Assembly: GCA_965215225.1 (NCBI GenBank)
Contig: OZ244039.1
Location: forward strand, 111,771-175,770
Reading direction: 5' to 3'
Source: Gammaproteobacteria bacterium
GTDB lineage: Bacteria > Pseudomonadota > Gammaproteobacteria > CBDBNL01 > JAAOII01
Length of the DNA stretch: 64,000 nucleotides
The translations under genes and the position numbers were made by a program. Below the pieces are notes generated by a model. It had not been told where the DNA came from and did no database searches. It saw only the letters and a program-made list of their open reading frames with translations. Position 1 is the first letter of the stretch, and each line of letters opens with the position of its first letter. Positions 4,158 through 33,422 of the stretch are shown here, one piece after another.

Positions 4158-4599
4158 TTATACCAGATGATTTGGTTTCTTATTATCCATCCATGTTTTT
4201 GCATCTCTATCGCTATTCTTTGAGGTATCATTTGTAAGTTACCATCAATATATAAGTGTCCCCCAGATTCAAAAAGAACGCTCCATCATCTTTTAGTATT
4301 CGCAACATTTTCTTGCCTAAGGAAGATATCTTTCGGACATAGTCATCAGGGCTTCTCTCTAAACCTATTTGGTGTTCAGAATTATAGTCTCGCAAATTCC
4401 AGTAAGGTGGGGAAGTCACTATCACCGCTATAGATTTATCGGGTATCCTTTTCAGAGCCGCTTCAACTTCAGCAATAATCACCAATGGAATAGGATTCTT
4501 AGGCAATTCAATAAGATCCCTGTCATATTCCAGATGATTCAATGGATTATTTTGCAATAATACATTAAAGCTGTTTTCTATACTTCTAAGTTTATACAC
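4158..4599 (-). pseudogene. N-terminal fragment of the same beta-class DNA methyltransferase. It has a catalytic motif IV TSPPY and an additional 1-nt frameshift in a poly-A run at about 4231-4233.
   Basis: ORF 4228-4599: ...SIAVIVTSPPYWNLRDY...GAFFLNLGDTY, then a stop. Continuation in the +1 frame (MIPQRIAIEMQKHGWIIRNQIIWY) is colinear with CcrM [23 protein letters not shown]. After removal of the IS and one TSD copy it joins in-frame to KPNHMPSA on the other side of the IS. Confidence 0.7.
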
Positions 4600-11873: not shown

Positions 11874-11894
11874 CACCCTGTAGTTATTCCAACT

Positions 11895-13204
11895 AATGGA
11901 AGCGGTAAAGAAGCAGCGCGTCTAAACAAATCTGATTTAATTGAGGTTCGCCAATCCCATCCAAAAACTACCAGCTATGCTATTGGATTGAAGCTGAGGA
12001 ACTAAGTCAAAGCCAGCCATATATAAGAAGGAAAACAGCTTGGCTAGATGGGTCTGGTTGGGTTCAGCTGTCCTAGTCGCTTCGGTTGAAGCTGAGGAAC
12101 TAAGCCAAAGCAAGCTACCTATATATAAGAAGGAAAACAGCTTGGCTAGATGGGTCTAGTTGGGTTCAGCTGTCCTAGCCGCTTCGGTTGAAGCTGTTGA
12201 ATATAAGAGACTAGTCAAAGCCAGCTACCTATATATAAGAAGGAAAGCAACTTGGCTAGATGGTCTGGTTGGGGTTGATCTGTCCTAGCTGAGAACCTAG
12301 TCAAAGCCAGCCACCTATATATAGGAAGGAAAGCAGCTTGACTAGATGATTCTAGTTGGGATTCATCTGTCCTAGCTGAGGAACCTAGTCAAAACCAGCT
12401 ACCTATATATAGGAAGAAAAGCAGCTTGACTAGATGATTCTAGTTGGGATTCATCTGTCCTAGCTGAGAACCTAGTCAAAGCCAGCTACCTATTATATAA
12501 GAAGGAAAGCAGCTTGGCTAGATGGGTCTGGTGGGGATTCTTCTGTCCTAGCCGTTTCGGTTGAAGCTGTTGAAGCTGAGGGACTAGTCAAAGTCAGCCA
12601 CCTATTACATAAGAAGAAAAGCAGCTTGACTAGATGGTCTGGTTGGGGTTGATCTGTCCTAGCTGAGAGCCTAGTCAAAGCCAGCTACCTATATATAGGA
12701 AGAAAAGCAGCTTGACTAGATGGTCTGGTTGGGGTTGATCTGTCCTAGCTGAGAACCTAGTCAAAGCCAGCTACCTATATATAGGAAGAAAAGCAGCTTG
12801 ACTAGATGGTCTGGTTGGGGTTGATCTGTCCTAGCTGAGAACCTAGTCAAAGCCAGCTACCTATTATATAAGAAGGAAAGCAGCTTGGCTAGATGGGTCT
12901 GGTAGGGATTCTTCTGTCCTAGCCGTTTCGGTTGAAGCTGTTGAAGCTGAGGGACTAGTCAAAGTCAGCCACCTATTACATAAGAAGAAAAGCAGCTTGG
13001 CTAGCTGGGTCTGGTTGAGTTCCTCTGTCCTAGCCGCTTTGGTTGAAGTTAGAGGGCCTAAGTCAAAGCAAGTTGTCGATTTAAGGTGAAAGGCTAATCA
13101 AAATCAGTTTGAAGAAGAAGGCAGACTGTCTAAGCGAGTCTGGTCTAGTGTGGGCTTGGCAGGCGTCCCCTCCAAAGACCACCAGCTACGCCAGTTGTCA
13201 ATGG
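11895..13204. repeat. Tandem array of ~12 copies of an 86-118 bp repeat derived from the 3' cassette-junction element of the giant lipoprotein genes. Each unit carries an 8-bp stem ctagtcaa/ttgactag around a TATATATA core and a GCTTC-GGTT-GAAGC hairpin.
   Basis: Direct reading: units such as gcagcttgactagatggtctggttggggttgatctgtcctagctgagaacctagtcaaagccagctacctatatataggaagaaaa recur head-to-tail. Longer variants insert ccgtttcggttgaagctgttgaagct. No unique spacers between units. Confidence 0.85.
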
Positions 13205-15613
13205 CTAATGGTGTGCAGCGAATGGCCGGATATTGACTTGAAGTGCCGAAATCCCAGATAAGATTGTCAGTCGAATTTGTTCATCTGCCTCAATGCTCCC
13301 GCTATGATCCCTATCACACCAGACCGCCAATGGCACGTTATCCCCATCGCTAAATATATTTGTCTCCTCGTCCCACCTATCATAAATATCTGTATAGCCA
13401 GTTGGGCTGCGGAGATCACTAGTGGTCTTGGCTTCACCAATGTTGCCAATACTGCCACTACTAAGAACATCACTGTCCCAATAGGAAGCAACTCCATCTC
13501 CGTCTGAAGCCGTCCCCGTCATAGCAGTATTACTGCCTGAAACTACATAAGAATAAGCAACCCGACCAGCATTAGCATCAACGCCAAGGAAGCCCACCAG
13601 ACCGCCTACAGAAGCAAGAAACAACCCCCCCATTCCGTTCACCTCAGCCACCACAACCGAAGAAGAATGAATCCGAGCACCTGGACCCCGCCCCAACAGA
13701 CCACCTACACTATTACCATTATCCCCTCTCACTTCACCTGCCACAACCGAAGAAGAATATATCTCAACCGATTCACTATCCCCTACCAGACCACCTACAT
13801 TACCCGCAACACCACTCCCTCTCACCTCACCCACCACGACCGAAGAAGAATATATCTCAACCGATATGCCCCCAGTCACTGGGCCCCACCCCAACAGACC
13901 TCCTACTTGATTAGCCCCGCTCACCTCACCCGCCACAACCGAAGAAGAATGAATCCGAGCCAATTCACCATACCCCACCAGACCGCCTACAACATTATCA
14001 GTCCCGTTCACCTTACCCGCCACAACCGAAGAAGAAACAATCCGAGCACTCATACCTCTCCCCATCAGGCCGCCTACATTAATACCACTCCCGCTCACCT
14101 CAGCCACCACAACCGAAGAAGAATTAATCTGAGCCGACGAACCAACCCCCATCAAACCGCCTACACTACCAACCCCTCTCACCTCAGCCACCTCAACCGA
14201 AGAAGAAACAATCCGAGCCGAGCCACCATTCCCTACCAGACTGCCTACAACTCGCCTTCCTATCACCGCTTCGGCGCGGAGAGTCAAATTGCGAATCTCT
14301 GAACCCGTAGCTATATAGCCAAACAAACCCACACAATCCTCAGCTGGACGACTAATGCTTAGATCACTGATCGTCCAGCCATTGCCTTCAAAAGTCCCAT
14401 CAAAAGCAGCTCCTTGACATAAAGCCATACTACTATCTGTATCATTCCCTAATGGCTGCCAGCCTTTGCCCTCTCTATAAGCGGCAAGACTTATATTCCC
14501 AACCAACTCATAGCCAGAACAAGAAGTGATCGCAGCGCCATCACCACAGCCAGTGCTATCAAGCGACCCATCCGCCGATAGCTTTCGCCCATTACCTTCT
14601 AGAGCATGCCTCACTGCATCCAATTGCGCCGCCGTCTCTATCTCTATCAACCCATCCCCATCTCTATCTACGTCCGCCCCATCCATAGAACCATCATTAT
14701 CATCATCTGTATCTTCACCTGCATCTCGGCAACCATCCATATCACTATCGGTCGAAGGATTACTCATCCAACCTGTCTCACCAGCAGAACAGTCGTCCAA
14801 ACTATCACCTACCTCATCATTATCACAATCCGCTAACAACCGACAACTCATCCCACCTGAATTAGTCAGCTGCTCCTTCGTATCAGTATCATCCAACCCA
14901 TCATTATCATCATCTGTGTCCTCAGTCTCATCACGGCAACCATCCCCGTCATTATCGCTAGAAGCATTGCTCTGCCAGTTGATCTCGTGACCAACAGCAT
15001 CCGGATCATCACATCGGTCTGCCTCATTATTAACATCATCGCCATCTAAGTCATCATCCACACTGTCTGCTCGTCTATCCCCATCCGTATCCAGCCCTGA
15101 CCCAATGCCGCCATCGTCGTGGTCGGCCTCATTCTCTGGCCAAACAAAATTGATTGCTACCCTCTGCTGTCTGCCATCATCAAGAGTCCCTATAATCGCA
15201 AAGGTCCAGTTGGATTGGTCGCCTAACCCAGTGAGGTTATAACTGTCATCAGCAAATTCGTTTATGTTAATATTCTTATTTACAGACTCGGTTCTATTGG
15301 TCGCCGTAATCCTCAAAGAAACCATCTCGCCAAAATCCGATTGGTTGCCTATTTGAAAACCATCGGGTATGGGAGCAAAAGTGAGATTTACCTCAAAAGG
15401 CCGGAGAGAACTAGGAGGACCATCACCTGGACCGCCTCCCCCATCTGAACCATTTTCCGAATCATCGCTTCCCCCACCAGCACAAGCCGTAAGAACTAGA
15501 AAGCTGAACCCAACTAAAAAGAAGAGAAGCCGCCCGCCTCGCAAAATCGGAAGGAAAGCAAGCACGAAAGAGGAAAGAAGACCCCGCACCAAACTAAACA
15601 AGCGGGGGGGCAT
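13205..15613 (-). CDS. Giant surface lipoprotein, single cassette (802 aa): lipobox LVLTAC, Ig-like FEVNLTFAPI domain, thrombospondin type-3 repeats, ~10 GLUG-motif repeats (VGGLVG), C-terminal AVWCD...WDFG...YPA domain.
   Basis: ORF track. TSP3 consensus D.D.DG..D..D.C..........D.DGDG..D visible repeatedly. GLUG period of ~19-22 aa. Paralogous to 16365-21803 and 62612-64000. The plus-strand Ser/Pro-rich ORFs inside are antisense artefacts. Confidence 0.7.
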   Translation of the reverse strand: MPPRLFSLVRGLLSSFVLAFLPILRGGRLLFFLVGFSFLVLTACAGGGSDDSENGSDGGGGPGDGPPSSLRPFEVNLTFAPIPDGFQIGNQSDFGEMVSLRITATNRTESVNKNININEFADDSYNLTGLGDQSNWTFAIIGTLDDGRQQRVAINFVWPENEADHDDGGIGSGLDTDGDRRADSVDDDLDGDDVNNEADRCDDPDAVGHEINWQSNASSDNDGDGCRDETEDTDDDNDGLDDTDTKEQLTNSGGMSCRLLADCDNDEVGDSLDDCSAGETGWMSNPSTDSDMDGCRDAGEDTDDDNDGSMDGADVDRDGDGLIEIETAAQLDAVRHALEGNGRKLSADGSLDSTGCGDGAAITSCSGYELVGNISLAAYREGKGWQPLGNDTDSSMALCQGAAFDGTFEGNGWTISDLSISRPAEDCVGLFGYIATGSEIRNLTLRAEAVIGRRVVGSLVGNGGSARIVSSSVEVAEVRGVGSVGGLMGVGSSAQINSSSVVVAEVSGSGINVGGLMGRGMSARIVSSSVVAGKVNGTDNVVGGLVGYGELARIHSSSVVAGEVSGANQVGGLLGWGPVTGGISVEIYSSSVVVGEVRGSGVAGNVGGLVGDSESVEIYSSSVVAGEVRGDNGNSVGGLLGRGPGARIHSSSVVVAEVNGMGGLFLASVGGLVGFLGVDANAGRVAYSYVVSGSNTAMTGTASDGDGVASYWDSDVLSSGSIGNIGEAKTTSDLRSPTGYTDIYDRWDEETNIFSDGDNVPLAVWCDRDHSGSIEADEQIRLTILSGISALQVNIRPFAAHH

Positions 15614-15799
15614 TATTGCGGCTATGTAACAAGGCGGACATAGACAAGGTAAGATAAGAGAAATAAAAGCGAGGCATTGCCGAGGCTAGATAAAAGAAAT
15701 CAGAAAGCAAGGCATTCACAATAGTGAAGAAGCGAGACCTGGTCACGCTAGATAAGAAAATTTTTGTTATCATGGCTAGTAATTGGTTAATGAATTCAT

Positions 15800-15960
15800 A
15801 GGTGGCATTATACCTCTTTTATAGATCTTTTATCTTTTTTTTAACTTTTTTTATCTCTTTTTTACATATCTTTTATCTTTTTTTTGTATCTTTTTTATCT
15901 CTTTTTTATATCTCTTTTAGGTCTCTTTTATATCTTTTTTCTGGTTATTTTTGTCTCAAC
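15800..15960. repeat. Degenerate ~13-bp repeats (tatctcttttttat)n in the 5' region of the 13205-15613 gene.
   Basis: Direct reading of ...ttttatctcttttttacatatcttttatcttttttttgtatcttttttatctcttttttatatctcttttaggtctcttttatatctttttt... Confidence 0.6.
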
Positions 15961-16035
15961 TAGCATTCAATTAATAGAAGATGAATGGTTAGTTCTGCCA
16001 GCTCAATTAACATCAGGACAATGCTCCTTGCCTGT

Positions 16036-16446
16036 TGGATTGAAGCTGAGGAACTAAGTCAAAGCCAGCTACCTAATATATAAGAAGGAAAGCAGCTTGA
16101 CTAGATGGGTCTGGTCGGGGTGTGCCACCAACCAAAGACCACCAGCTATGCCGTTTCGATTGAAGCTGAGAAACTAAGTCAAAGCCAGCTACCTAATATA
16201 TAAGAAGGAAAGCAGCTTGACTAGGTGGGTCTGACTGGGTTCAGCTGTTCTAGCCGTTTCGGTTGAAGCTGGGGGGCTAAGCTAAAGCAAGTTGGTAGTT
16301 TAGGAAAGCAGCTTGGCTAGATGGGTCTGGTTGAGTTCCTCTGTCCTAGCGGCTTCGGTTAAAGCTAGGGAAGCAACGCGTCTAAACGAGGCTGGTTTAG
16401 CCGGGGTTTGGCTGGCGTCCCCTCCAAAGACCACCAGCTACGCCAG
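16036..16446. repeat. Second array (3-4 units) of the junction-derived 100-115 bp repeat, overlapping the 3' coding end of the 16365-21803 gene.
   Basis: Same unit family as 11895-13204 (ttgaagctgaggaactaagtcaaagccagctacctaatatataagaaggaaagcagcttgactagatgggtctgg...). The conserved junction core cctccaaagaccaccagctacgccag lies at 16415-16446. Confidence 0.8.
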
Positions 16447-19400
16447 TCATCAGGGGCTAGCGGGGTGCAGAGAAGAGCGGGATATTGACTTGAGGTGCCG
16501 AAATCCCAGATGCGATTATCAGGGGTTCGTTCATCTGCCTCTATGCTCCCGCTATTATCCCTATCACACCAGACCGCCAAAGGCACGTCTTCCCCATCGT
16601 TAAATATATTTGTATGATTGCCCCAGTTGGCATAAATATCTGTATAGTCAGTTGGACTGCGGAGATCACTAGTGGTCTTCGGGTCACCAATGTCGCCACT
16701 AAGGACATTACTAGTATCACTGTCCCAATAAGAATCAACATCAGTAATCCCGCTTCCAACTCCAGCCAACATATTGGTATTCCTGCCTGAGACTACATAA
16801 GAATAAGCAACCTTGCCAGAGTAAAAGGCTCCCGCCAGACCGGCTATACTACCTAGTAAACCACCACTCCCGCTCACCTCACCCACCACAACCGAAGAAG
16901 AATGAATCCGAGCCGAGCCACCATTCCCTACCAGACCGCCTACACTACTACTCCCGTTCACCTCACCTGCCACAACCGAAGAAGAATGAATCCCAGCCCG
17001 AACACCATTCCCTACCAGACCGCCTACATACAAACCAGTTCCGCTGACCTCAGCCACCACAACCGAAGAAGAAAAAATCCGAGCCGAGTGACCCCATCCT
17101 ACCAGACCACCTAGAACCCCCAACCCGCTCACCTCTCTTGCCACAACCGATGAAGAAAAAATATGAACGCCATCCCCCCACCCCACCAGACCGCCTACAC
17201 GAAGATTACCTTTCACCCCACCCACCACAACCGAAGAAGAAACAATCCGAGCCAAGCCACCATGCCCCACCAGACCGCCTATACTAGTATTCCCACTCAC
17301 CTCACCCACCTCAGCTGAAGAAGAATTAATCCGAGCCGAGCTGCCATCCCCCACCAGACCGCCTACACGAAGATTACCTTTCACCCCACCCACCACAACC
17401 GAAGAAGAAACAATCCGAACATCTGTCCCATACCCCACCAGACCGCCTACTCTATCACCACCTACTACTGCCTCGGCATGAAGAGTCAGATTGCGAATCT
17501 CTGAATTCGCAGCTATATGACCAAACAAACCCACGCAATCCTCACCTGAACGATTAATGCTTAGATCACTAATCATCCAGCCATTGCCTTCAAAAGTCCC
17601 ATCAAAAGCAGCTCCTTGACATCCATCTGTAACATTATCTGTATCATGACCCAAGGGTTGCCAGCCTTTGCCTCCATCACCATCTGCATAGGCTGCAAGA
17701 CTTATATCCGCAACCAGCTCATAACCATTACAGGTCCTAATGCTGTCGCCATCACCACAGCCAATGGTGTCGGTCGTCGCATTCTCTGATAGCTGGCGCC
17801 AGCTACCATGCAAAGCATACCTCACTGCATCTAATTCCGCGGCCCTAGCTATCTCTATCAAACCATCGCCATCATCATCTATATCTATATTGTCGTCATA
17901 ACCATCGCCATCGCAATTCCTATCTAATGCACATCCAGCTGCCTCATCACCATCTCGGACCTCATCATTATCATCGTCTGTATCCTCATCTGCATCACGG
18001 CAACCATCGCCATCATTATCAGTAGAACCATTGCTCGTCCAACCCGTCTCACCAGCAGAACACTGGTCTGAATTATCATCTACCCTATCATTATCGCAAT
18101 CAGTCTTTATTACACAATTTGCCGCCACTTCATCTATGTCTCTGACAGTATCCCCATCGCAATCTGCTAACAGCGAACAACTCACCCCATCCAAATTATT
18201 CTGCTGCTCCCTCACATCAGTATCATCCAATCCATCATTATCGTCATCTGTATCCTCACCCCCATCACGGCAACCATCCCCATCATTATCGGACGATGAA
18301 TTGCTCGTCCAACTTGTCTCACCAACAGAACATTGATCTGAACTATCAGTTACCAAATCATTATCATCATCTTCATCCTCACCCTCATCACGGCAACCAT
18401 CCCTATCATGATCGGTAGAACTATTGCTTAGCCAATCGGGCTCGCCAATAGAACATTGGTCTGAATTATCATCCACCTCATCACTATCACAATCAGTTTC
18501 TATTACACAATTTGATGCCATCTCATCTATATCTCTGACAGTATCCCCATCGCAATCCGCTAACAACCAACATGTCACATTATTTGAATTAGTTAGCCGC
18601 TCTCTCGAATCATTATCCCCTAACCCATCATTATCACAATCCTCATGCAAACGACACTCCCTTCCATCAACCATTCCTGTATCCAGCAAATCTAAAATAT
18701 TATCATCATCATCATCCTCATCACAAGCATCCCCTTCAGTATCACCATCAATATTATATTGTCGAGGATTTACAACAAGCCGGCAATTATCCCTAACATC
18801 CGGAACCCCATCATTATCATCGTCATCATCCACACTATCCGCTCGCCCATCCCTATCTGTATTTAGACCTGGCCGAATACCGCCGCTTGCGTGATCTTCA
18901 CGATTCTCTTGCCAGATAAAATTTATTCTCATATTTTGCTGCCTCCCATCACTAAGAGCCCCTATAATCCGAAAAGTCCAATCGGTTTGATCATCTAGCC
19001 CGATAAAATCATAATAGCTGTCATCAATAAATTCGGCTATGTCAATATCCTCTTCTACTACCAACCCGCCTTCATTAGTTGCTTTGATGTTCAAAGAAAC
19101 CGAATCACCAAAATCCGATTGGTTAGCTATGCGAAAACCATCGCTTATGGGAGTAAAAGTGAGATCCACCTCAAAGAAAGGAAGCAGCTCATCTAAACGG
19201 GTCCGGTTTAGTCGAGGTTTACCAATCTCATCCAAAAACCACGAGCTACGCCAGTCGGCAGGGGTTAGCTGAGTGCAGCGAATGGCGGGATATTGACTTG
19301 AATTACCGAAATCCCAAATAAGATTGTCCTCGGTTTGTTCATCTGTCTCAATGCTCCCGCTATTATCCTCATCACACCAGACCGCCAATGGGACGTCTTC

Positions 19401-21803
19401 CCTATTGCCAAATATATTTGTAGCATTGTCCCAATCGGCATAAATCCCTTCATAGCCAGTCGGCATCCGAAGTGCATCGCTGGTCTTGGCTTCCCCAGTG
19501 CTTCCACTATTAACACCATTAACATCACTGTCCCAATAAGAATCAACATCAGTAACCCCGCTTCCAGTCCCAACCAGCATAGCAGCATCTGAGACCACAT
19601 AAGAATAAGCAAGCTTGCCAAAATCAAAACGCCCCGCCAGGCTGCCTATAAAATTACGTCGCCCACTCACCTCAGCCACTACAACCGAAGAAGAATGAAT
19701 TTGAGCGAATGGTCCATCCCCTACCAGACCGCCTACAAAACTAAAAAAACTGTTCACCCCGCTCACCTCAGCCACCACGACCGAAGAAGAGTGAATATGA
19801 GCACCTTCACCCAACCCCACCAGACCGCCGACAGTAGAGCGCCCGCGCACTTCACCCGCCACAACCGAAGAAGAATCAATCCGAGCCGATAGACCCCAAC
19901 CCACTAGACCGCCTATTAGGCTATTCCCGTTCATCTCACCAACCACAACCGAAGAAGAATGAATTTGAGCCGAGTCACCCAAACCCACCAAACCACCTAT
20001 CCAATCATTAGTCCCGCTCACCTCGCCAGCTACGACCGAAGAAGAAACAATCCGAGCAAATTCACCAGACCCCATCAGACCGCCTATACTCTGCACACCC
20101 ATCACCTCACCCACCTCAACCGAAGAAGAATGAATCCGAGCGAATTCACCATACCCCACCAGACCGCCTACAGCATTTCTACCTATCACTGTCTCGGCAC
20201 GAATATTCAAATTGCGAATCTCTGAATTCGCAGCCACATGACCAAACAAACCCACACAATCCTCGCCTGAACGACTAATACTTAAATTGGTAACCGCAAA
20301 ACCATTGCCTTCAAAAATTCCGTCGAAAGCGGCTCCTTCACATTCACCTTCAAAATTTAGTGGTCCTTCCCCCAAGGGCTGCCAGCCTTTGCCGTCCCTA
20401 TAAGCAGCAAGACTTATATTCCCAACCAGCTCATAGCCATCACAGAACCTAATGCCGTTGCCACCACCACAACCAGTGGTGTTGAGTTCCGCATCCGCTG
20501 ATAACCTACGCCCATCGCCATTCAGAGCATACCTCACTGAATTCAATTCCGCCGCCGCGGCTATCTCTATCAAACCATCGCCATCTCTATCTATGTCCTC
20601 ATCATCCATAACCCTATCATTATCATCGTCATCATCCTCACCTGCATCACGGCAACCATCGCCATCATTGTCGGTAGAAGGATTGCTCGTCCAACCTGTC
20701 TCACCAGCAGAACACTGGTCGAAATAATCATCTACCTCATCATTATCACAATCCTCATACAAGCGACACTCCCTCCCATCAACCATTCCGGTATCCATCA
20801 AATCTGGCAATAGATCATTATCACAATCCTCATATAAGCGACACTCCCTCCCATCAACCATTCCGGCATCCATCAAATCTGGCAATAGATCATTGTCATC
20901 ATCCATATCCTCAGTCTCATCACGGCAACCATCCATATCATTATCGCTAGAAGAATTGCTCGTCCAACCTGTCTCACCAGCTTCGCACAGGTCCAAATTA
21001 TCATTTACCTCATCATTATCACAATCGCTGTCTAATTCACATCCAGCCTCCTCATCCAGATCTTCTACCTTATCATTATCATCATCTGTATCCTCAGTCT
21101 CATCACGACAACCATCCCCATCATTATCGGTCGATGAATTGCTCGTCCAACCTGTCTCGCCAGTTTCACACAGGTCTGAACTATCATTTACCCTATCATT
21201 ATCATCATCCTCATCCACACTATTCGCTCGCCCATCCCCATCCGTATTGTTTCCCGCCCGAATGCCACCGCTCTCGTGATCTTCCTCATTCTCTTGCCAC
21301 ACAAAGCCTATCTCCACCTCCTGCTGCCTGCCATCACTAAGAATCCCTATAATCGCAAGAGTCCAGTTGGATTGCTCATCTAGCCCAGTAAAGTTATAGC
21401 TGCCATCAACAAATTCGGCTATGTTGATATTTAGCTCTTCTACCACCGACCCATTCTCACTGGTTGCCTTGATGCTCAAAGAAACCAAATCACCAAATGC
21501 CGATTGGTTGCCTATTTCAAACCCGCCACTTATAGGAGCAAAGGTGAGATTTACTTCAAAAGGTCGGAGAGAACTAGGAGGGACTTCAGTTGGACTGCCT
21601 CCCGAACCCCCACCAGCACAAGCAGTAAGAGTTAGAAAGCCAACCCCAACCAAAAAGAAAAGAAACCGCTTGCCTCGCAAAAGCGGAGGGAAGGCAAGCA
21701 CAAAGGAGAAAAGAAGTCCCCTCACTAAACTAGACACGCGAAGAGCGGACACAAAGGAGTGGCATAACGGAGGCACAAGAAAGACATAGACGAGGGAAAA
21801 CAT
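16365..21803 (-). CDS. Giant surface lipoprotein formed by in-frame fusion of two complete cassettes (1812 aa). Each half has the FEVNLTF Ig-like domain, TSP3 repeats, GLUG repeats and a WDFG/YPA C-domain. The halves are joined through a translated junction element (...YPAIRCTQLTPADWRSSWFLDEIGKPRLNRTRLDELLPFFEVDLTF...).
   Basis: ORF track. Internal repetition of the whole domain order. Nucleotides 19190-19330 match the intergenic junction or tail element found after the other cassettes. Confidence 0.7.
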   Translation of the reverse strand: MFSLVYVFLVPPLCHSFVSALRVSSLVRGLLFSFVLAFPPLLRGKRFLFFLVGVGFLTLTACAGGGSGGSPTEVPPSSLRPFEVNLTFAPISGGFEIGNQSAFGDLVSLSIKATSENGSVVEELNINIAEFVDGSYNFTGLDEQSNWTLAIIGILSDGRQQEVEIGFVWQENEEDHESGGIRAGNNTDGDGRANSVDEDDDNDRVNDSSDLCETGETGWTSNSSTDNDGDGCRDETEDTDDDNDKVEDLDEEAGCELDSDCDNDEVNDNLDLCEAGETGWTSNSSSDNDMDGCRDETEDMDDDNDLLPDLMDAGMVDGRECRLYEDCDNDLLPDLMDTGMVDGRECRLYEDCDNDEVDDYFDQCSAGETGWTSNPSTDNDGDGCRDAGEDDDDDNDRVMDDEDIDRDGDGLIEIAAAAELNSVRYALNGDGRRLSADAELNTTGCGGGNGIRFCDGYELVGNISLAAYRDGKGWQPLGEGPLNFEGECEGAAFDGIFEGNGFAVTNLSISRSGEDCVGLFGHVAANSEIRNLNIRAETVIGRNAVGGLVGYGEFARIHSSSVEVGEVMGVQSIGGLMGSGEFARIVSSSVVAGEVSGTNDWIGGLVGLGDSAQIHSSSVVVGEMNGNSLIGGLVGWGLSARIDSSSVVAGEVRGRSTVGGLVGLGEGAHIHSSSVVVAEVSGVNSFFSFVGGLVGDGPFAQIHSSSVVVAEVSGRRNFIGSLAGRFDFGKLAYSYVVSDAAMLVGTGSGVTDVDSYWDSDVNGVNSGSTGEAKTSDALRMPTGYEGIYADWDNATNIFGNREDVPLAVWCDEDNSGSIETDEQTEDNLIWDFGNSSQYPAIRCTQLTPADWRSSWFLDEIGKPRLNRTRLDELLPFFEVDLTFTPISDGFRIANQSDFGDSVSLNIKATNEGGLVVEEDIDIAEFIDDSYYDFIGLDDQTDWTFRIIGALSDGRQQNMRINFIWQENREDHASGGIRPGLNTDRDGRADSVDDDDDNDGVPDVRDNCRLVVNPRQYNIDGDTEGDACDEDDDDDNILDLLDTGMVDGRECRLHEDCDNDGLGDNDSRERLTNSNNVTCWLLADCDGDTVRDIDEMASNCVIETDCDSDEVDDNSDQCSIGEPDWLSNSSTDHDRDGCRDEGEDEDDDNDLVTDSSDQCSVGETSWTSNSSSDNDGDGCRDGGEDTDDDNDGLDDTDVREQQNNLDGVSCSLLADCDGDTVRDIDEVAANCVIKTDCDNDRVDDNSDQCSAGETGWTSNGSTDNDGDGCRDADEDTDDDNDEVRDGDEAAGCALDRNCDGDGYDDNIDIDDDGDGLIEIARAAELDAVRYALHGSWRQLSENATTDTIGCGDGDSIRTCNGYELVADISLAAYADGDGGKGWQPLGHDTDNVTDGCQGAAFDGTFEGNGWMISDLSINRSGEDCVGLFGHIAANSEIRNLTLHAEAVVGGDRVGGLVGYGTDVRIVSSSVVVGGVKGNLRVGGLVGDGSSARINSSSAEVGEVSGNTSIGGLVGHGGLARIVSSSVVVGGVKGNLRVGGLVGWGDGVHIFSSSVVAREVSGLGVLGGLVGWGHSARIFSSSVVVAEVSGTGLYVGGLVGNGVRAGIHSSSVVAGEVNGSSSVGGLVGNGGSARIHSSSVVVGEVSGSGGLLGSIAGLAGAFYSGKVAYSYVVSGRNTNMLAGVGSGITDVDSYWDSDTSNVLSGDIGDPKTTSDLRSPTDYTDIYANWGNHTNIFNDGEDVPLAVWCDRDNSGSIEADERTPDNRIWDFGTSSQYPALLCTPLAPDDWRSWWSLEGTPAKPRLNQPRLDALLP

Positions 21804-21965
21804 CCCTTCACCAAACTAGACAAGCGGGAAGCAGGACACAAAGGAGTGGCATAACGGAGGCACAAGAAAGACATAGACGAGGAAAAACATCCCTTCACCA
21901 AACTAGACAAGCGGGAAGCAGGACACAAAGGAGTGGCATAACGGAGGCACAAGAAAGACATAGGG
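21736..21965. repeat. Three tandem 87-bp copies of the 5' end (start-codon region) of the 16365-21803 gene.
   Basis: Unit period of exactly 87 bp (acacaaaggagtggcataacggaggcacaagaaagacatagacgag...). Upstream copies carry ATG-initiated short ORFs that end at a TAG created by a 1-nt difference from the gene-proximal copy. Confidence 0.8.
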
Positions 21966-22225
21966 GAGGTGAGATAAGAGAATAGAAGCGGGACCCAATA
22001 TCCACAATATTGAAGAAGCGGAGCTTCACTTCCTTGTCTTCACCGAAAAACAAAAATTGTCTTGTCATGGTTAATGATTGAAACTAATAAGAACATTGTT
22101 CAGCTGCTTATCAGCTAGCTAAAAGCAGAAATGGTTTCATAGTCCTATTATATCTTTTCTTCCAACTAAAAAAAGGAATACTGTAATCATATTAGCAGTC
22201 TTAGTTTGTTAGTTTTTGTCAGTTT

Positions 22226-22645
22226 AAGGAAGGAAGCCGCTCATCTAAACGGAATGGTTTAATTTGTCAAGCGTCCCAGCCAAAGCAAGTTGTCAGCTTA
22301 AGATGAGAGGCTAATCAAAATCAGCCCAAGAGGGAAGTAGATTAGCTAAATGGGTCTGGCTGGAGTTCCTCTAGCCTAGCCGAGAATCTAAGCCAAAGCC
22401 AGTTGTCAGTTTAAGGAAGGAAGCAACTCGTCTAAGCGGGTTCGGTTTAGTTGGGGTTTGGCAGGCGTCCCCTCCAAAGACCACCAGCTACTTCGGTTGA
22501 AGCTGAGGAACTAAGTCAAAGCCAGCTATCTATATATAAGAAGGAAAGCAGATTAGCTAAATGGATCTGGTTGGGGTTCATCTATCCTAGCCCCTTCGGT
22601 TGAAGCTGAGGAACTAAGTCAAGGCAAGTTGGTGGTTTAGGAAAA
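22226..22645. repeat. Third array (~4 units) of the junction-derived repeat family, upstream of the 16365-21803 gene.
   Basis: Units contain aaggaagcaactcgtctaagcgggttcggtttagttggggtttggcaggcgtcccctccaaagaccaccagctac and ttcggttgaagctgaggaactaagtcaaagccagc. Confidence 0.8.
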
Positions 22646-22647
22646 TA

Positions 22648-22840
22648 GGCGGATTCACATTTAAAGTGCAACATCTGTTGCTAAATTATAATTGATTTCG
22701 CTGAGTTGTTAGAACACTTCAGCGGGTGTTTCGAATCCGAGGCACTTTCGTGGTCGGTTGTTCAATCGGGTCATGATTTTAGTTATTATTTGGTTAGATA
22801 GATTTCGGAAGGACATTCTTTTCTCTGAAAGATAATGCTT
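22648..22840 (-). mobile_element. IS30-family right-end remnant (IRR ggcggattcacatttaaagtgcaacatc plus ~50 C-terminal transposase codons).
   Basis: Colinear nucleotide similarity to the 3' ~190 bp of the intact IS copy, in reverse orientation. Confidence 0.6.
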
Positions 22841-22912
22841 TTTACACATTTTAGATCGGCTAGTTATCTTGGAGTCAGGTTGCCCTTAGGATGTAAATTT
22901 ATGTTGTAGTCA

Positions 22913-23659
22913 TCAGACATTATTGTGTCTTTGATGAATGGTGTTTATTGTTTTCTTGTTTCTATTAATCGATATGACTTGCCTCCCATGTTTTTTTGCT
23001 GCTGTCCCAGTAGTTTCGTTCCCGCCAGAAAGAATCAACACAGTATTACCTACATTACTATGAGCTAAGATGATTCGCTCCAAAATATTAAAGGGTCTTT
23101 GAATAGAGTTCTTATTCCCATTATTCTTTTCTTTGCTATTACTTTTTAGTATCGGCATACTATCCCACCAGACATCAGTCGGAGTTTTGCCACGCTTAGC
23201 CTTTTCATCTCCTACTAACATAGGCGCCATATATGGTATGCGATCTATTTCCTCGTAGTTATAGCTATAATTTTTGTTATCCTTTGTGTACCACAAGATA
23301 TAGTGATGTTTTGTCGGCCATCTCGATCTGCTTCGAGCCCTTCCCTCATAGGCTAGGATGATTTCGTTTATAAAATTACTCCTACCAAATAATTTATCCA
23401 TCTCAATTTTGATATAGTGAACCTCTCTATAGTCTGCTTGTAAAAAGAAACTTCCGTTATCACTTAATAATGGATATGCTAACTCCACTCTATCCATCAA
23501 GAATGAAATGTGGTTTCTGGATTTGTCACCTTGCCCTCGCCTATTCTTAAAGAGCCGCTCAATGTAAATAAGATCTATGCTACCCTTTTTTATGGTAGGT
23601 AAATTCATATCTTCTTTCCAAACTAAAAAACAATTGCTGAAATCATATCGGCATGGCAA
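22913..23659 (-). CDS. Degenerate beta-class (CcrM-like) DNA methyltransferase homologue with both catalytic motifs ablated. A likely inactive pseudo-enzyme or early-stage pseudogene, although the ORF is intact.
   Basis: Colinear with CcrM: SIDLIYIERLF (for SVDLIFADPPY), LSDNGSFFLQADY (for LKPNGSLWVIGSY), HHYILWYTKDNKNYSYNYEEI (for [19 protein letters not shown]), and ILSGGNETTGTAAKKHGRQVISI (for [25 protein letters not shown]). DPPY is replaced by ERLF and D-FxGxG by SGGNE. Confidence 0.5.
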   Translation of the reverse strand: MPCRYDFSNCFLVWKEDMNLPTIKKGSIDLIYIERLFKNRRGQGDKSRNHISFLMDRVELAYPLLSDNGSFFLQADYREVHYIKIEMDKLFGRSNFINEIILAYEGRARSRSRWPTKHHYILWYTKDNKNYSYNYEEIDRIPYMAPMLVGDEKAKRGKTPTDVWWDSMPILKSNSKEKNNGNKNSIQRPFNILERIILAHSNVGNTVLILSGGNETTGTAAKKHGRQVISINRNKKTINTIHQRHNNV

Positions 23660-23873
23660 TACGGATACTTCATTATACCTTCATTGCCCATTGCCATTAG
23701 ATCTTCCTTCCTTTGCCAAACTCTTGATTTGAAAGTTCTGATTAATTAAAGCAACTCAAATAAGTTCTACTAACTACAATTGAGTCAAACCATCTAAGCC
23801 AATTTGAAATAAATCATCTTATAATGACAACTCAAGAATCATTTAAATAATTCTAACTTCTATTTGACTAACT

Positions 23874-24992
23874 ATGAAAAAAATAGCGTTCTACCTTCCT
23901 TTATTACTGATGGCCAGTCTGCCAGTTCATTCATTGGAGCTGGTTACCAGTATCAAACCGCTTCAGCTAATGGCATCGGAGCTTATCCTACCCCAAGACC
24001 GGGTAGCTTATCTCATCCCACCTAATGCATCGCCTCACACCTATGGCTTGAAACCCTCTGCCATAAGGCAAGCAAGACAAGCCGACCTTGTTCTCTGGGT
24101 TGGCAGTGGGCTGGAAAGCAAATGGGGGAAGTTGTTCACTAGCCTCGACTCATCTATTGAGCTAGCTCAGGCACTAGGCTTACAAGAGGAGAGAGAAGAA
24201 CATGGTGAGGACCATGATAAACACCATGGTGAAAAGCACGATGAAGAGCATAGCGAAGAGCATGATGAAGAGCATAGCGAAGAGCATGATGAAGAGCATA
24301 GCGAAGAGCATGATGAAGAACATAGTGAAAAGCACGATGAAGACCATGGTGAAAAACATGGTGAAAAACATGGTGAAGAGCATGGTGAAAAACATGGTGA
24401 AGAGCATGGTGAAAAGCATGATGAAGACCATCATGAAGACCATGATGAGGAACATGGTGAAGAGCATGCTCATCACGACCATTCTCATTCAATTGACCTT
24501 CATATCTGGTTGTCGCCTCCATTGATGAGGCAGACAGCAGCCGTTATCACCGACCGCTTAATCCAACTCAATCCTTCTCAAGCAGAATCCTACCAACAAA
24601 AATTGGCTGCTTTTGAAAGAGACCTAGCCACCGCCATTAATGCCATAAACAACGACCTACTAGCTGTAAGGGATAAGAAGTTCTATACCATGCATGATGC
24701 CTATAACTACTTCACTTCCTATTTTCATCTCAGCAACACTGGTTATCTGACCCTCTCGCCTGAGATTCCCCTGTCAGCTTCCCATCTACAGAGGGTTCGC
24801 TCCGACCTAAAAAACAAAGACATCGTCTGCGTATTTAGCGAGCCGCAACTAGATGAGGCAGCGGTTCTCAAACTCATTGAAGGCACTCAGGTTCGTTATG
24901 GCATTCTAGACCCCCTAGCAGGCAATGCGAACGACTATTTCAGCTTTCTCCACACGCTAGCAGATTCATTCAAACAATGCCTTGCTTCCTAA
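23874..24992 (+). CDS. znuA: Zinc ABC transporter periplasmic substrate-binding protein ZnuA-like, with a long His/Glu/Asp-rich loop.
   Basis: Signal peptide. Cluster-9 SBP pattern. Loop HGEDHDKHHGEKHDEEHSEEHDEEH... encoded by 24-bp nucleotide repeats (agcgaagagcatgatgaagagcat x4). The ORFs 24154-24525 are artefacts of this repeat. Confidence 0.75.
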   Translation: MKKIAFYLPLLLMASLPVHSLELVTSIKPLQLMASELILPQDRVAYLIPPNASPHTYGLKPSAIRQARQADLVLWVGSGLESKWGKLFTSLDSSIELAQALGLQEEREEHGEDHDKHHGEKHDEEHSEEHDEEHSEEHDEEHSEEHDEEHSEKHDEDHGEKHGEKHGEEHGEKHGEEHGEKHDEDHHEDHDEEHGEEHAHHDHSHSIDLHIWLSPPLMRQTAAVITDRLIQLNPSQAESYQQKLAAFERDLATAINAINNDLLAVRDKKFYTMHDAYNYFTSYFHLSNTGYLTLSPEIPLSASHLQRVRSDLKNKDIVCVFSEPQLDEAAVLKLIEGTQVRYGILDPLAGNANDYFSFLHTLADSFKQCLAS

Positions 24993-25934: not shown

Positions 25935-28641
25935 ACACTTAATTCTGGTGGATGGCTCGAGCCATATGTTTCGCGCCTACTATGCCCTTCAACAGCAGGG
26001 TTTCTCTAGCCCCGACGGCAAACCCACTGGTGTTCTTTATGGGGTGCTCAATATGATAAAGGCATTAGGCAAACAATATCCCAAAAGCACTATCATCATA
26101 GTTTTTGATGGCAAGGGCAAAGGAGTCCGCAGCCAATGGTATCCCAAATATAAAGCACAGCGCCCATCTATGCCTGAGGATATGAGAGAACAGCTGCCCC
26201 CTTTGTTTGATGCCATTCGGGCTTTGGGAATTCCCTTAGTCCAACAAGGCGATTGGGAAGCCGATGACCTCATAGGCGTGCTGGTTAAACAAGCACCTTC
26301 GCTATATAAGAAAACCTACATAGCGACTCGCGACAAGGACTTGGCTCAGCTAATCTCCACTAGGGTTTCAATCCTTGCCGATGAAAAGACAAACACTCTA
26401 TGGGGGCCAGCTGAGGTAGAGGAAAAATTTGGGGTGCCACCCAAGCTGATTAACGACTATCTAGCACTTCTAGGTGACACGGTTGACAACATTATCGGAG
26501 TAGAAAAGGTGGGGCCAAAGACAGCCGCTCAGTTGCTCAAAAAATACGGCTCGCTAGAAGAGCTACTTGCCAATCTCAATGAGGTTCCAGGCAAGGTGGG
26601 CGAAAATCTCATGGCAGCTAAGGAACGGCTACCGCTAAACAAGAGGCTCACCACTCTTATCTCTTCCATCTCGCCGCTACCAGACCTTGCTTCATTAAAG
26701 ACAAGACCGCCAGATAATGACAGGCTGCGCGCGCTCTATTTAGAATATGGCTTGCGCAGTTTTCTTAAAGAGATGCCAAGCCATGACAGCCCAACTGAAC
26801 AAGAGTACCATCTCATAACCGAAAAAGAGCAATGGCAAGAGCTAATCAAGCAGCTGCGCAAGAACAAGTCTTTTGTCTTCAATCTGCATAGTGAGAAAAA
26901 GGAAGACCTCAATGCCGCTCCAGTTGGGTTCTCATTTGCTATGTCTGCAGCCAAAGCCTATTATGTGCCGTGCGGTCATTCTTACTTAGATGCCCCTCCC
27001 CAATTAACTATTGAAGAGATCTTGGCTGAGCTAAAACCACTCTTCGTTTCTCACACTATTATTAGTCATGGACTCAAATATAGCTTCCATCTGCTTGCCA
27101 ACCAACTCCAACTGGAGAAGCGAGCAGAAAAACAATCATTGAATCAGCTGCCGAGCCAATGGGAAGATGTTCGTCTGATGTCCTATACTATCAATTCCAC
27201 TGCCAGTAACAATCATTCACTATCCGATCTCAGCCAAACCTATCTCGCTACCATTAAGCAAGACGACCAAGAACTGCTTGGCAAAGGCAAAAAGCAAATA
27301 GGCTTCGCTGACCTAGATCTAGCCAAAGCAAAGGACTATGCTGGCGAAGAAAGTCTGCTCAGCTTTCAGCTATTTGACCGATTGAGCGAAGAGATGAAAA
27401 AGGAAAAAGATTTGATGGCTGTCTATCAGAAAATAGAAAAACCCCTCATGCCAGTGCTGATGCATATGGAACGCACCGGCGCATTGTTGGACTCTAAGCT
27501 ATTACAGCAACAAAGTCGCCAACTGGAAAAAGCTATGAAGCAGATCGCCGAGCAGATCTTCTCTCATAGTAAAACGGAATTCAACATCAACTCCCCAGCT
27601 CAGCTTGGCAAGGTGCTTTATGAGGAGATGGGCTTTACTTCTGGCCGCAAAACAAAGGGTGGTAAGCACTCCACTGCCGAAAGCATTTTGCAAGAACTAG
27701 CTATTGAGCACGAATTTCCTCGTCTGATATTAGACTACCGCAGTGTCAGCAAACTAAAGAATACCTATACCGACCCTCTCCCTCAATTAGTGAATCCGAA
27801 AACCGGCCGCGTCCATACTTCTTTTGATCAAGCGGGGGCTGCCACCGGACGACTAGCTTCCCTCCACCCTAATCTACAAAATATTCCCATTAGAACAGCT
27901 GAGGGTAGGCGGATTCGCCAAGCATTCATCGCTCCAGCCGGTCGGCTACTAGCATCTGCTGATTACTCCCAAATTGAACTGCGCATCATGGCACATCTAT
28001 CCAAGGACAAGACCCTACTTGACGCCTTTCAGCGCAAACAAGACATCCATAGAGTTACCGCAGCTGAGGTGCTTGGCAAAGAACCGAGCCAAGTAACCGA
28101 TGAGGAGCGGCGACAAGCCAAGGCAATCAACTTTGGCCTAATCTATGGTATGTCCGCCTTCGGCCTAGCAAGACAACTGAGAATAGAACAATCAGCCGCC
28201 CAAGAATTCATCAAGATATATTTCAATCGCTATCCGGGAGTTCAAAAGTATATTACCCAGACGCGCAGCCTAGCCCACAAAAAAGGCTGGGCTGAAACGC
28301 TCAGTGGGCGGCGAGTCTATACCCCTGATATTAACAGCACTAACTTTGTTGCCCGCTCGGCAGCCGAGCGAGCTGCTATCAATGCCCCAGTGCAAGGGAC
28401 TGCCGCTGACATCATCAAATTAGCCATGCTGAAAGTATCCGCTGCCCTGGATCATCAACGCGCCAGTTTAATTTTGCAGGTGCATGATGAATTGCTACTG
28501 GAAGTAGATGAAGACTATATCGACCAATGCGAGCAATTGGTGCGCGACTCTATGACTCAGGTCGCGCCACTAAAAGAGAAACTTCAGGTGGATCTGGAGG
28601 TGGATTTCGGCTATGGCGCTAATTGGGATGAGGCTCACTGA
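25927..28641 (+). CDS. polA: DNA polymerase I (5'-3' exonuclease, 3'-5' exonuclease-like and polymerase domains).
   Basis: 904 aa. Motif A DYSQIELRIMAHLS, motif B RRQAKAINFGLIYGMSAFGL, motif C LQVHDELLLEV. N-terminal FEN domain. Confidence 0.95.
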   Translation: MNEHLILVDGSSHMFRAYYALQQQGFSSPDGKPTGVLYGVLNMIKALGKQYPKSTIIIVFDGKGKGVRSQWYPKYKAQRPSMPEDMREQLPPLFDAIRALGIPLVQQGDWEADDLIGVLVKQAPSLYKKTYIATRDKDLAQLISTRVSILADEKTNTLWGPAEVEEKFGVPPKLINDYLALLGDTVDNIIGVEKVGPKTAAQLLKKYGSLEELLANLNEVPGKVGENLMAAKERLPLNKRLTTLISSISPLPDLASLKTRPPDNDRLRALYLEYGLRSFLKEMPSHDSPTEQEYHLITEKEQWQELIKQLRKNKSFVFNLHSEKKEDLNAAPVGFSFAMSAAKAYYVPCGHSYLDAPPQLTIEEILAELKPLFVSHTIISHGLKYSFHLLANQLQLEKRAEKQSLNQLPSQWEDVRLMSYTINSTASNNHSLSDLSQTYLATIKQDDQELLGKGKKQIGFADLDLAKAKDYAGEESLLSFQLFDRLSEEMKKEKDLMAVYQKIEKPLMPVLMHMERTGALLDSKLLQQQSRQLEKAMKQIAEQIFSHSKTEFNINSPAQLGKVLYEEMGFTSGRKTKGGKHSTAESILQELAIEHEFPRLILDYRSVSKLKNTYTDPLPQLVNPKTGRVHTSFDQAGAATGRLASLHPNLQNIPIRTAEGRRIRQAFIAPAGRLLASADYSQIELRIMAHLSKDKTLLDAFQRKQDIHRVTAAEVLGKEPSQVTDEERRQAKAINFGLIYGMSAFGLARQLRIEQSAAQEFIKIYFNRYPGVQKYITQTRSLAHKKGWAETLSGRRVYTPDINSTNFVARSAAERAAINAPVQGTAADIIKLAMLKVSAALDHQRASLILQVHDELLLEVDEDYIDQCEQLVRDSMTQVAPLKEKLQVDLEVDFGYGANWDEAH

Positions 28642-29445
28642 TTAGATCTTATGACTAGGCAGTCAGTTTCCATGACTCAAGTTGCGCCACTAAAAGAGAA
28701 ACTTCAGGCGGATCTGGGGGTGGGTTTGGAGGTGGATTTAGGGGCGGATTTGGAGGTGGGTTTGGGGGTGGATTTAGGGGCGGGTCTGGGGGCGGATTTC
28801 GGCTATGGTGCTAATTGGGACGAGGCTCATTGACTAGGTCTTATGACTAAGCGGTCAATTCTCGTGATTCAGGTTGCGCCACTAAAAGAGAAGCCTCAGG
28901 TGGATCTGGAGGTAGATTTAGGGGCGGATTTCGGCTATGGCGCTAATTGGGATGAGGCTCATTGATTAGGTCTTATGACTAGGCAGTCAGTTTCCATGAC
29001 TCAAGTTGCGCCACTAAAAGAGAAACTTCAGGTGGGTTTGGGGGTGAGTCTGGGGGTGAGTCTGGGGGTGGGTTTGGAGGTGGATTTGAGAGCAGATTTC
29101 GGCTATGGCGCTAATTGGGACGAGGCTCATTGATTAGGTCTTATGACTAAGCGGTCAATTCTCGTGATTCAGGTTGCGCCACTAAAAGAGAAACTTCAGG
29201 TGGGTCTGGAGGTGGATTTAGGAGCGGATTTGGAGGTGGATTTCGGCTATGGCGCTAATTGGGACGAGGCTCATTGATTAGGTCTTATGACTAAGCGGTC
29301 AATTCTCGTGATTCAGGTTGCGCCACTAAAAGAGAAACTTCAGGTGGGTTTGGGGGTGAGTCTGGGGGTGGGTTTGGAGGTGGATTTGAGAGCAGATTTC
29401 GGCTATGGCGCTAATTGGGATGAGGCTCATTGACTAGGCCTGATG
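28642..29445 (+). repeat. Six tandem ~130-190 bp copies of the polA-3'-end / mnmA-5'-start junction. Each contains a decoy mnmA-like ATG fused to a polA tail and an internal variable 12-bp (ggtggatttrgg) microsatellite.
   Basis: Each unit reads ...ttaggtcttatgactaggcagtcagtttccatgactcaagttgcgccactaaaagagaaacttcaggtgg(at/gt)ctgg... ggctatggcgctaattgggatgaggctcattga. ORF 28651-28833 is one such unit. Confidence 0.85.
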
Positions 29446-31772: not shown

Positions 31773-31810
31773 GAATTTAAATCGTGAATTTGCATCATAA
31801 GTTCAACCTG

Positions 31811-33384: not shown

Positions 33385-33422
33385 ATGTCTTGATATTATT
33401 AATGATTATAGCTCCTTTTCAA

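Follow-up and report, generated by a model that had tools for sequence, protein, structure and literature searches.

The window analysed here, 64,000 nucleotides (nt) of contig OZ244039.1 (positions 111,771 to 175,770; assembly GCA_965215225.1) from an uncultured gammaproteobacterium, carries five genes of one family of large modular proteins with lipoprotein-type N-termini. An earlier note on this DNA had placed these genes at 13205-15613, 16365-21803, 47802-53720, 53802-61322 and from 62612 to the end of the window. All five (g1 to g5) were confirmed there as large minus-strand open reading frames (ORFs), and the domains, tail relics and 3'-flank repeats of the family described below lie on the same strand. 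The common plan proposed for the genes was likewise borne out by their translations. It consists of a lipobox, a beta-rich N-terminal domain, Asp/Cys-rich repeats, 28-amino-acid (aa) coils of the form (V/I)GGL(V/I)G and a C-terminal domain with the signature VWCD...WDFG...YPA(I/L)RC.

Two subfamilies were distinguished. Subfamily A comprises g1, both modules of g2 and g5 (DNA identity 70-86%), and its modules end in a Trp-rich tail, ...TPLAPDxWRSWWxL..KPxLNxxRLDxLLP. The single-module gene g1 encodes 802 aa as it stands (13205-15613) and is 100% identical to the database protein P0105; with a 2-nt insertion removed, the frame continues to a stop at 13104-13106, giving a gene at 13104-15613. 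The two modules of g2 (16365-21803) are encoded by 1812 codons from the first ATG, and the database version of the protein, P0276, starts at 21776 and has 1803 aa. Of g5, another single-module gene, the window holds the 3' part (62612-64000); the full protein, P0074, has 581 aa. Subfamily B consists of g3 (47802-53720) and g4 (53802-61322; 2506 aa), each with two modules, canonical TSP_3 repeats and no Trp-rich tail. Here, modules are linked via ...YPxLRCAPPL(D/E)DSF...., which reads RCAPPLDDSF in g3. The TSP_3 units of g4 are encoded by a 234-bp repeat present in 10.9 copies. A single NCBI/ENA contig of 2,317,988 bp carries exact matches to g1, g3, g4 and g5 (as P0074) as well as to PolA.

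A subfamily-A module is composed of an FN3-like beta-sandwich, repeats resembling thrombospondin type-3 (TSP3) repeats, a GLUG-like beta-helix, a cap and the Trp-rich tail. Module b of g2 was modelled with AlphaFold on an alignment of 40 sequences. In this model the beta-sandwich (residues 1-105, encoded at 18863-19178) was predicted with confidence, with a predicted local distance difference test (pLDDT) score of ~80. The acidic region (residues 115-430) had low confidence (pLDDT <50) and corresponds to the Asp/Cys-rich, TSP3-like repeat region at 17888-18833, which is built on a 123-bp repeat. This region contains one canonical TSP_3 repeat, whereas the other units follow a variant of ~41 aa, DxCxxGExxWxSNxSxDxDxDGCRDxxEDxDDDND; the number of Asp/Cys-rich repeats varies between modules. 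The right-handed beta-helix of ~390 aa (residues 440-830, 16688-17858) consists of 28-aa GLUG-like coils with an 84-bp period and was modelled with very high confidence (pLDDT >90). Its equivalent in module a lies at ~19541-20585. A cap domain of ~100 aa with a conserved Cys pair follows, and the 33-aa Trp-rich tail had a pLDDT of ~85. Calcium binding and stiffening are established for TSP type-3 repeats. By analogy, the Asp/Cys-rich repeats probably bind calcium and may stiffen a stalk, while the GLUG-type helix and the cap would form a putative binding surface.

The domain names given in the earlier note were compared with Pfam profiles at their gathering scores (TSP_3, PF02412, 25 bits; Glug, PF07581, 20.5 bits; fn3, PF00041, 25 bits), and they stood in part. 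TSP_3 was passed strongly by g3 (145 bits) and g4 (166.6 bits) but not by g1 and g2. The fn3 threshold was passed by g4 (30.4 bits); g3 reached 21.7 bits, and the subfamily-A domain had no Pfam match. In Foldseek comparisons the subfamily-A sandwich resembled FN3 weakly (E ~0.01-0.1, template modelling score 0.6-0.7), and the FN3-like domain was the only part for which the PDB comparison gave matches, weak as they were. No gene reached the Glug threshold (9.1 bits, E 2.6, for the C-terminal half of g2 module b; 13.0 bits, E 0.15, for the second module of g3), and precomputed Glug matches exist in the database for few homologues only. However, the solved structures that come nearest to the modelled right-handed helix with its GGL(V/I)G coils are GLUG helices, and the family profile matches a pneumococcal IgA1 protease (E 5e-6). 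The modules thus appear to contain a GLUG-type beta-helix as judged from the models, missed by Pfam and recovered by fold comparison. No family-level Pfam or NCBIfam model spans the whole architecture.

Among the closest known proteins are the M26 IgA1 metalloproteases (S. pneumoniae ZmpA, G. haemolysans IgA1P) and BACOVA_03286 (PDB 3n6z), with a GLUG beta-helix at the N-terminus. In contrast to the M26 proteases, the window family lies below the Pfam Glug threshold, occurs in a Gram-negative organism, carries a lipobox instead of LPXTG and lacks the catalytic domain: a HExxH motif was absent from g1 to g5, Peptidase_M26_C gave no match, and the ZmpA model scored 18-25 bits against a cut-off of 3000. 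Alternatively, the proteins could be carbohydrate-active enzymes, with the beta-helix as a catalytic pectin-lyase-type fold acting on host or algal polysaccharide and FN3 and TSP3 domains as spacers. We regard this as improbable, given that the family profile matches GLUG-type helices at the sequence level too, that no Pfam or NCBIfam family of carbohydrate-active enzymes was matched and that the regular 28-aa coils have no obvious insertion able to form a catalytic groove.

The canonical repeats of g3 and g4 form long DxDxDGxxDxxDxC arrays as in other TSP type-3 proteins (PF02412; Myxococcus MtsC, OmpA-TSP3). In the window family, the repeats are one segment of a module with a beta-helix and a cap, without MYXO-CTERM or OmpA, and the ~41-aa unit of subfamily A fails the Pfam threshold. 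The likeness to MtsC raises the question of whether the proteins serve self-cohesion or form the matrix of the bacterium itself, like MtsC or biofilm adhesins, instead of binding a host. Indeed, TSP3 repeats are common to both, and the NCBIfam MtsC model (NF047638) gave 525 bits in g4 and 295 bits in g3; g1 and g2 reached only 18-29 bits. Membership in this family is defined by at least 350 bits over the full length of a 428-position model together with a MYXO-CTERM sorting signal. The scores obtained here are sums of 11-14 repeat matches, the 525 bits of g4 stemming from 14 separate repeat stretches, and by inspection the C-termini carry no Cys-plus-transmembrane tag. The proteins are also 5-6 times the size of MtsC and have an N-terminal lipobox. 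A role in self-cohesion is therefore rather unlikely in our view. The 'equivalog' cut-off of 350 can be passed spuriously by adding repeat scores, and automatic pipelines could misname g4.

Lipoprotein signals were judged by eye; the pattern looked for was a lipobox [LVI][ASTVIM][GAS]C behind a positively charged n-region and a hydrophobic h-region. In agreement with the earlier note, such signals were found in g1 (LTAC), g2 (LTAC), g3 (VMAC) and g4 (LSGC), each after R/K and a hydrophobic stretch, and they suggest that the proteins are lipid-anchored at the cell surface. An 87-bp unit (21717-21963; 2.9 copies, 95% identity) lies across the annotated start of g2 and repeats a leader-like segment, MSFLCLRYATPLCPASRLSSLVKGCF. 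The start of g2 is uncertain; a TTG at ~21681, giving MRGKRFLFFLVGVGFLTLTAC, would provide a canonical lipoprotein signal of 21 aa.

According to the earlier note, every module of the family ends at the same nucleotide element, which sometimes follows the stop codon and sometimes is translated as a linker, and which might be a built-in recombination or readthrough junction. The nucleotide strings quoted for this element do exist. They were located at 13171-13265, 16423-16517, 19231-19325 and 62745-62764, and shuffled sequences gave 0 matches. They are the reverse complements of the codons for DNLIWDFG, SSQYPAIR and WRSWWSLE. The element is thus the coding DNA for the C-terminal cap (VWCD..WDFG..YPAIRC) and the 33-aa Trp-rich tail, and no separate element is present. 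In g2 the internal copy comprises the cap and tail codons of module a (19179-19385, tail at 19179-19277), and the string matches and the 3'-end alignment place the terminal copy of module b at 16368-16574. Within genes the element has exactly four copies, each of them in a subfamily-A member, and one orphan relic exists besides. Neither the DNA element nor the Trp-rich tail is present at any of the four ends of modules in g3 and g4, so that the element does not mark every module.

Alignment of the four 3' ends revealed that similarity among the copies stops at the stop codon. In 60-nt windows, mean pairwise identity was 0.70-0.86 within the modules, 0.74-0.79 in the element, and behind the stop codon it dropped first to 0.50 and next to 0.34. 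The proportions of synonymous (pS) and non-synonymous (pN) differences, calculated for seven copies that come from three genomes, amounted to pS 0.46 and pN 0.28 in the tail and pS 0.45 and pN 0.17 in the cap. Over 100 homologues show the tail to be conserved at the protein level, and its W, R, WW, P and L residues do not vary. This is the pattern of protein-level constraint with freely diverging synonymous sites, unlike that of a signal acting at the DNA level. Because similarity ends at the stop codon and synonymous sites have diverged, the element is ordinary coding sequence. A conserved non-coding boundary was not found in the alignments of the module 3' ends, and the self-comparison proposed in the earlier note yielded coding similarity only, which speaks against a dedicated junction.

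The position of the element behind the stop codon of g1 has a simple explanation. Relative to the other three 3' ends, g1 has two extra bases, a 'GA' at 13271-13272 in the cap domain. The insertion is absent from a strain-level relative (L018; ENA assembly ERZ25070786, an independent assembly from another sample) that is 98% identical and in whose g1 orthologue, P0130, the frame stays open across the complete cap and tail. Deleting the two bases from g1 restored exactly the P0130-type C-terminus. Hence, the element lies after the stop codon of g1 because a 2-nt insertion frameshifts the coding sequence; the insertion site is not a homopolymer. A repeated 3' "element" beside paralogous genes can therefore be ordinary coding sequence displaced by a frameshift. 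On a 1.8-Mb contig of a relative (L001, 16814-19122), DNA similarity to family genes extends over three short called genes that lie side by side (278, 139 and 377 aa). We read this trio as one family gene split by frameshifts like g1, which could reflect either recurrent decay or long-read consensus errors.

The in-frame fusion of two modules in g2, by contrast, stood. The ORF is uninterrupted over its 1812 codons; module a ends with ...RLDELLP at 19179 and module b starts with FFEVDLTF at 19178. There is no stop codon at this junction, so nothing is read through, and the tail acts as an in-frame connector between complete modules, as the notion of a translated linker implied. We considered whether the fusion and the g1 frameshift could stem from mis-assembly or consensus errors. 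The family is indeed highly repetitive, and the split gene on L001 could equally be a consensus error there. However, the independent assembly L018 encodes a fused orthologue of 1803 aa (98.7% nucleotide identity), which makes a mis-assembly of g2 unlikely. Two other multi-module proteins share the same junction, and the g1 insertion does not lie in a homopolymer; an error at that site is possible and would leave the conclusion unchanged. An artefact is thus extremely improbable as the explanation of these features.

The junction was searched for with a 257-aa query spanning it against 1.84 billion representative proteins (exhaustive HMMER). The query aligned over the boundary to three proteins, namely g2 itself (P0135/P0276), P0136 (1766 aa, two modules) and P0134 (7295 aa). 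P0134 contains seven cap/tail segments and six in-frame tail-to-FN3 junctions, and its N-terminal part resembles subfamily B. All three proteins are encoded on the window's own contig. Their eight junctions share the boundary RLDxLL[PS]SF|ExxLTFAPI, which is free of gaps in seven cases and carries a 6-aa insertion in the eighth. A word-indexed homology search had returned neither P0135/P0276 nor any other multi-module member, despite their presence in the collection, and the long concatemers were recovered by exhaustive HMMER only. An AlphaFold prediction of the 257-aa junction from the eight junction sequences had a mean pLDDT of 33.

Most family members are single-module proteins, and the proteins of the genome have between 1 and 7 modules. 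The modules of P0134 are each other's nearest relatives (80-90% identity), which indicates amplification in place. In g2 the two modules do not pair as sisters but lie closest to P0137 and to modules of P0134 (72-81%), and the g2 fusion is thus either old or derived from a multi-module ancestor. The tail is a normal part of the repeating module, which ends single-module proteins and connects the modules of multi-module ones. That the tail is a mere C-terminal sorting signal was considered and rejected: one protein has as many as six internal copies of it, and the tail lacks a transmembrane segment.

The family is large. At least 69 genes with 64,283 codons (192.8 kb) were counted on the 2,317,988-bp contig, a lower bound that corresponds to 8.3% of its length. 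Of the best 120 homologues of the C-terminal half of g2 module b, 61 lie on this contig (counted from the table). L018 matches the window at this locus with 97.8-98.7% identity and agrees with it in gene order and module number. A species-level relative (L017; JGI 3300007064), ~86-87% identical in argA-ccmE and polA, differs at this site. There, ccmE is followed directly by znuA with 122 bp in between, and a different family member adjoins argA. Since ccmE directly precedes znuA in L017, the segment between these genes in the window (11874-23770) represents an insertion or deletion of 11.9 kb. This island contains g1, g2, repeat arrays, tail relics, an IS30-like remnant and a DNA methylase gene.

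A sensitive search that used tail DNA as the query detected several relics of the tail in the island. An intergenic orphan tail upstream of g2, at 22419-22491, still codes for ..SWWSLEGTPAKPQLNRTRLDELLPSLN and a stop and matches the tail at 88% over 73 nt (E 4e-16). A second tail-end fragment lies at 22230-22252, and small pieces lie at 16132-16148 and 11910-11977. Arrays of one and the same 3'-flank repeat family occur at three places. One adjoins the orphan tail (22331-22644). Another follows directly after the g2 stop (16029-16370) and measures 0.34 kb here and ~1.2 kb in L018. Downstream of g1 lies a tandem array of 86-102-bp units (11957-13075), whose unit is homologous to the tail end and the 3' flank: its alignment to the last ~20 nt of the tail plus 3' flank scored 31 compared to 14 ± 2.2 for shuffled sequences, and none of 2000 shuffles reached 31. 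Relics and arrays alike are absent from the internal junction of g2 and are distinct from the element of the earlier note. RNA folds of the 3'-flank units were mostly no better than those of shuffles (z -2.2 to +0.95), with no evident structured RNAs or terminators, a promoter and terminator scan of the island remained at chance level, and Rfam detected only a tRNA-Thr in the window. Relics and arrays are the footprints of past deletions and amplifications at the 3' ends of genes, and they lend partial support to a recombinogenic region.

The comparison with L018 revealed a second kind of trace. Against a background of ~0 differences per 150 bp, the differences between the two strains were clustered in short patches, located at the 5' end of g1, in the g1 cap, at 19200-19350, in a coil turn at 19907-19942 and at 20400-20550. 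Within 19200-19350, a patch of 35 bp in g2 changes NSSQ to GSDE and resembles g5. Such clusters are what short-tract gene conversion among paralogues would produce, and this process can be regarded as their putative cause. As for the recombination suggested in the earlier note, traces of it are thus present in the orphan tails, the flank-derived arrays and the clustered patches, but a built-in junction is not supported.

The earlier note had likened the locus to antigenic-variation systems, that is, to programmed cassettes in which the tail segment serves as a recombination or read-through junction and modules are shuffled at high frequency. Orphan tails, and small tail pieces within the flanking arrays, speak for such shuffling, but the two short tail relics are the only truncated copies, and neither silent nor promoterless cassettes were found: the complete genes examined all have their own signal peptide and lipobox. 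Arrays derived from the tail end and the 3' flank do border genes and differ in length between strains; however, gene order and module number are identical in the consensus assembly of L018. The clustered strain differences include a patch in the g2 junction region, yet the window paralogues are uniformly 70-86% identical, which indicates that no large-scale exchange has occurred recently. Proteins with 1 to 7 modules coexist in the genome, but the fusion in g2 is old or inherited from a multi-module ancestor, given that its modules are not sisters. In addition, conservation of the tail DNA does not exceed that of the remaining module, the synonymous sites of the tail have diverged, no non-coding boundary is conserved and the junction contains no stop to be read through. 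A reverse transcriptase is missing among the scanned ORFs, and the integrase fold is limited to the genes for IS30-type transposases (3059-4160 and 35103-36203). A cassette system with built-in recombination junctions is hence improbable. A diversity-generating retroelement was also rejected, with no reverse transcriptase among the scanned ORFs and patch differences that are not adenine-specific.

We consider it likely that the genes belong to a duplicating, recombining, lineage-specific and massively expanded family of modular adhesin-like lipoproteins and not to a programmed cassette system; evolution by ordinary homologous processes is the best reading of the data. Each gene consists of a lipoprotein signal peptide and one module, or several modules head-to-tail in frame as in g2, P0136 and the seven-module P0134. 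Duplication would have spread genes into scattered islands, unequal recombination between module repeats would change the number of modules, and short-tract gene conversion would exchange sequence between paralogues. Repeats in the 3' flanks would be amplified, and frameshifts, of which g1 has one, would make some genes decay. An acidic stalk stiffened by calcium might present at the cell surface a beta-helix without catalytic function, which would bind a ligand of the host or of a matrix, and the family may mediate adhesion to, or mimicry of, the host matrix by a symbiont.

A number of observations weigh against this reading. In subfamily A the TSP3-like repeats do not pass the Pfam profile: g2 scored 18.7 bits against the 25-bit cut-off, g1 had no Pfam TSP_3 match, and in a profile-profile comparison the 41-aa unit aligned to canonical TSP3 over 8 columns only, with a probability of 37%. 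The beta-helix fold is used by polysaccharide lyases and hydrolases as well, so that an enzymatic role is conceivable. The annotated N-termini are unusually long, with 41-62 residues before the lipobox Cys, and the true start codons are uncertain for this reason. Apart from the g5-like patch of 35 bp, no donors of the patches were found among 124 family proteins and the window. Finally, host association rests on the titles of distantly related metagenome-assembled genomes (MAGs) and on one paper that lists Ca. Porisulfidus among sponge-associated metagenome bins. A symbiotic lifestyle of this organism is plausible.

A stronger form of the recombination model is conceivable, in which homologous recombination at a fixed module boundary, formed by cap and tail together with the 3'-flank repeats, continually creates new module numbers and mosaics. 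We hold such a combinatorial surface system to be unlikely. If it existed, a small symbiont genome would devote at least 8% of its DNA to a family with a rapidly changing repertoire of host-binding beta-helix lipoproteins, an undescribed architecture and mode of diversification for symbionts.

The expanded adhesin-like family can be compared with known surface systems. Giant adhesins of the Bap/SiiE/LapA type arise by in-frame tandem amplification of an Ig-like unit of ~100 aa within one giant gene and carry type 1 secretion signals. The window family resembles them in its variable module number (1-7), in the close kinship of neighbouring modules in its 7295-aa member, in acidic repeats that suggest calcium dependence and in its predicted surface location. 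It differs in a multi-domain unit of ~900 aa, in N-terminal lipidation and in its distribution over at least 69 separate genes. Multigene systems of variable surface proteins are represented by Borrelia vls, Neisseria pilE/pilS and Mycoplasma vsp/vlp. With these the family has in common a large paralogous set of predicted surface lipoproteins, signs of short-tract conversion and repeat-rich flanks, but an expression site with silent cassettes, a conserved boundary repeat and strain-level reshuffling are missing at this locus.

The window contains further paralogous genes and repeats. The stretch 30780-43112 carries a cluster of Sulfotransfer_2 paralogues, at least five in number, which are ~330 aa long and 79-82% identical in nucleotides, together with two Glyco_transf_92 genes; both families are typically eukaryotic. 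In the strain locus L019 (13731-18183) the Sulfotransfer_2 cluster differs in copy number and order, and identity is 87-92% there compared to 98.9% in the flanks. The IS30-type copies at 3059-4160 and 35103-36203 (HTH_38 and rve) are inverted and 99% identical. In the island of g1 and g2, a reading of the sequence suggests a C-terminal remnant of an IS30-like transposase on the minus strand (~22700-22830, ending in ..LNNRPRKCLGFETPAEVF and a stop), which a DNA methylase gene (22913-23659) adjoins.

The genome is unusually rich in long intergenic tandem arrays. Between the g5 stop and the g4 start (61444-62488), a heptamer array of GCCTTCT with ~87 copies is followed by a 14/28-nt array of CTTCCCCTTGCTAA with ~30 copies; these arrays could affect the expression of g4 or be phase-variable. 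Another array (45014-46426) consists of 103/173-bp units and a 23-mer in nine copies and measures ~1.5 kb here and ~0.7 kb in L019, and a third (28553-29465) has units of 132-300 bp with GGTGGATTTGGG 12-mers. The stretch 15817-15940, upstream of g1, holds ~10 copies of an A-rich repeat of 11 bp (AAAAGATAAAA on the coding strand), which may be a curved-DNA or promoter element. Within znuA (24150-24470), 22.8 copies of a 12-nt repeat, GAAGAGCATGGT, encode a His/Glu-rich loop of ZnuA. Nowhere do the window and L018 diverge more than in this repeat, where 36 and 23 differences per 150 bp were counted.

Symbionts of sponges and other invertebrates show expansions of eukaryote-like proteins with ankyrin, leucine-rich repeat, FN3 and cadherin domains. 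The organism studied here resembles them in combining a small genome with a strongly expanded family that has domains of the animal-matrix type (FN3, TSP3). The detectable relatives are MAGs of Gammaproteobacteria with chromosomes of 1.8-2.2 Mb (Ca. Porisulfidus, Ca. Oxydemutatoraceae, Porticoccaceae and others), including sponge-associated lineages. The building blocks and the evolutionary processes are all known. A literature search on GLUG, thrombospondin and sponge symbionts yielded no description of this domain combination with beta-helix, cap and tail. In the libraries and literature searched, the module, its use both as a stand-alone gene and in in-frame concatemers of up to seven units, and the scale of its expansion in a small genome appear to be undescribed. 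In a genome of ~2.3 Mb, at least 8% of the DNA goes into a single unnamed family of large modular lipoproteins, which makes this family the most obvious candidate for the interaction of the organism with its surroundings or its host.

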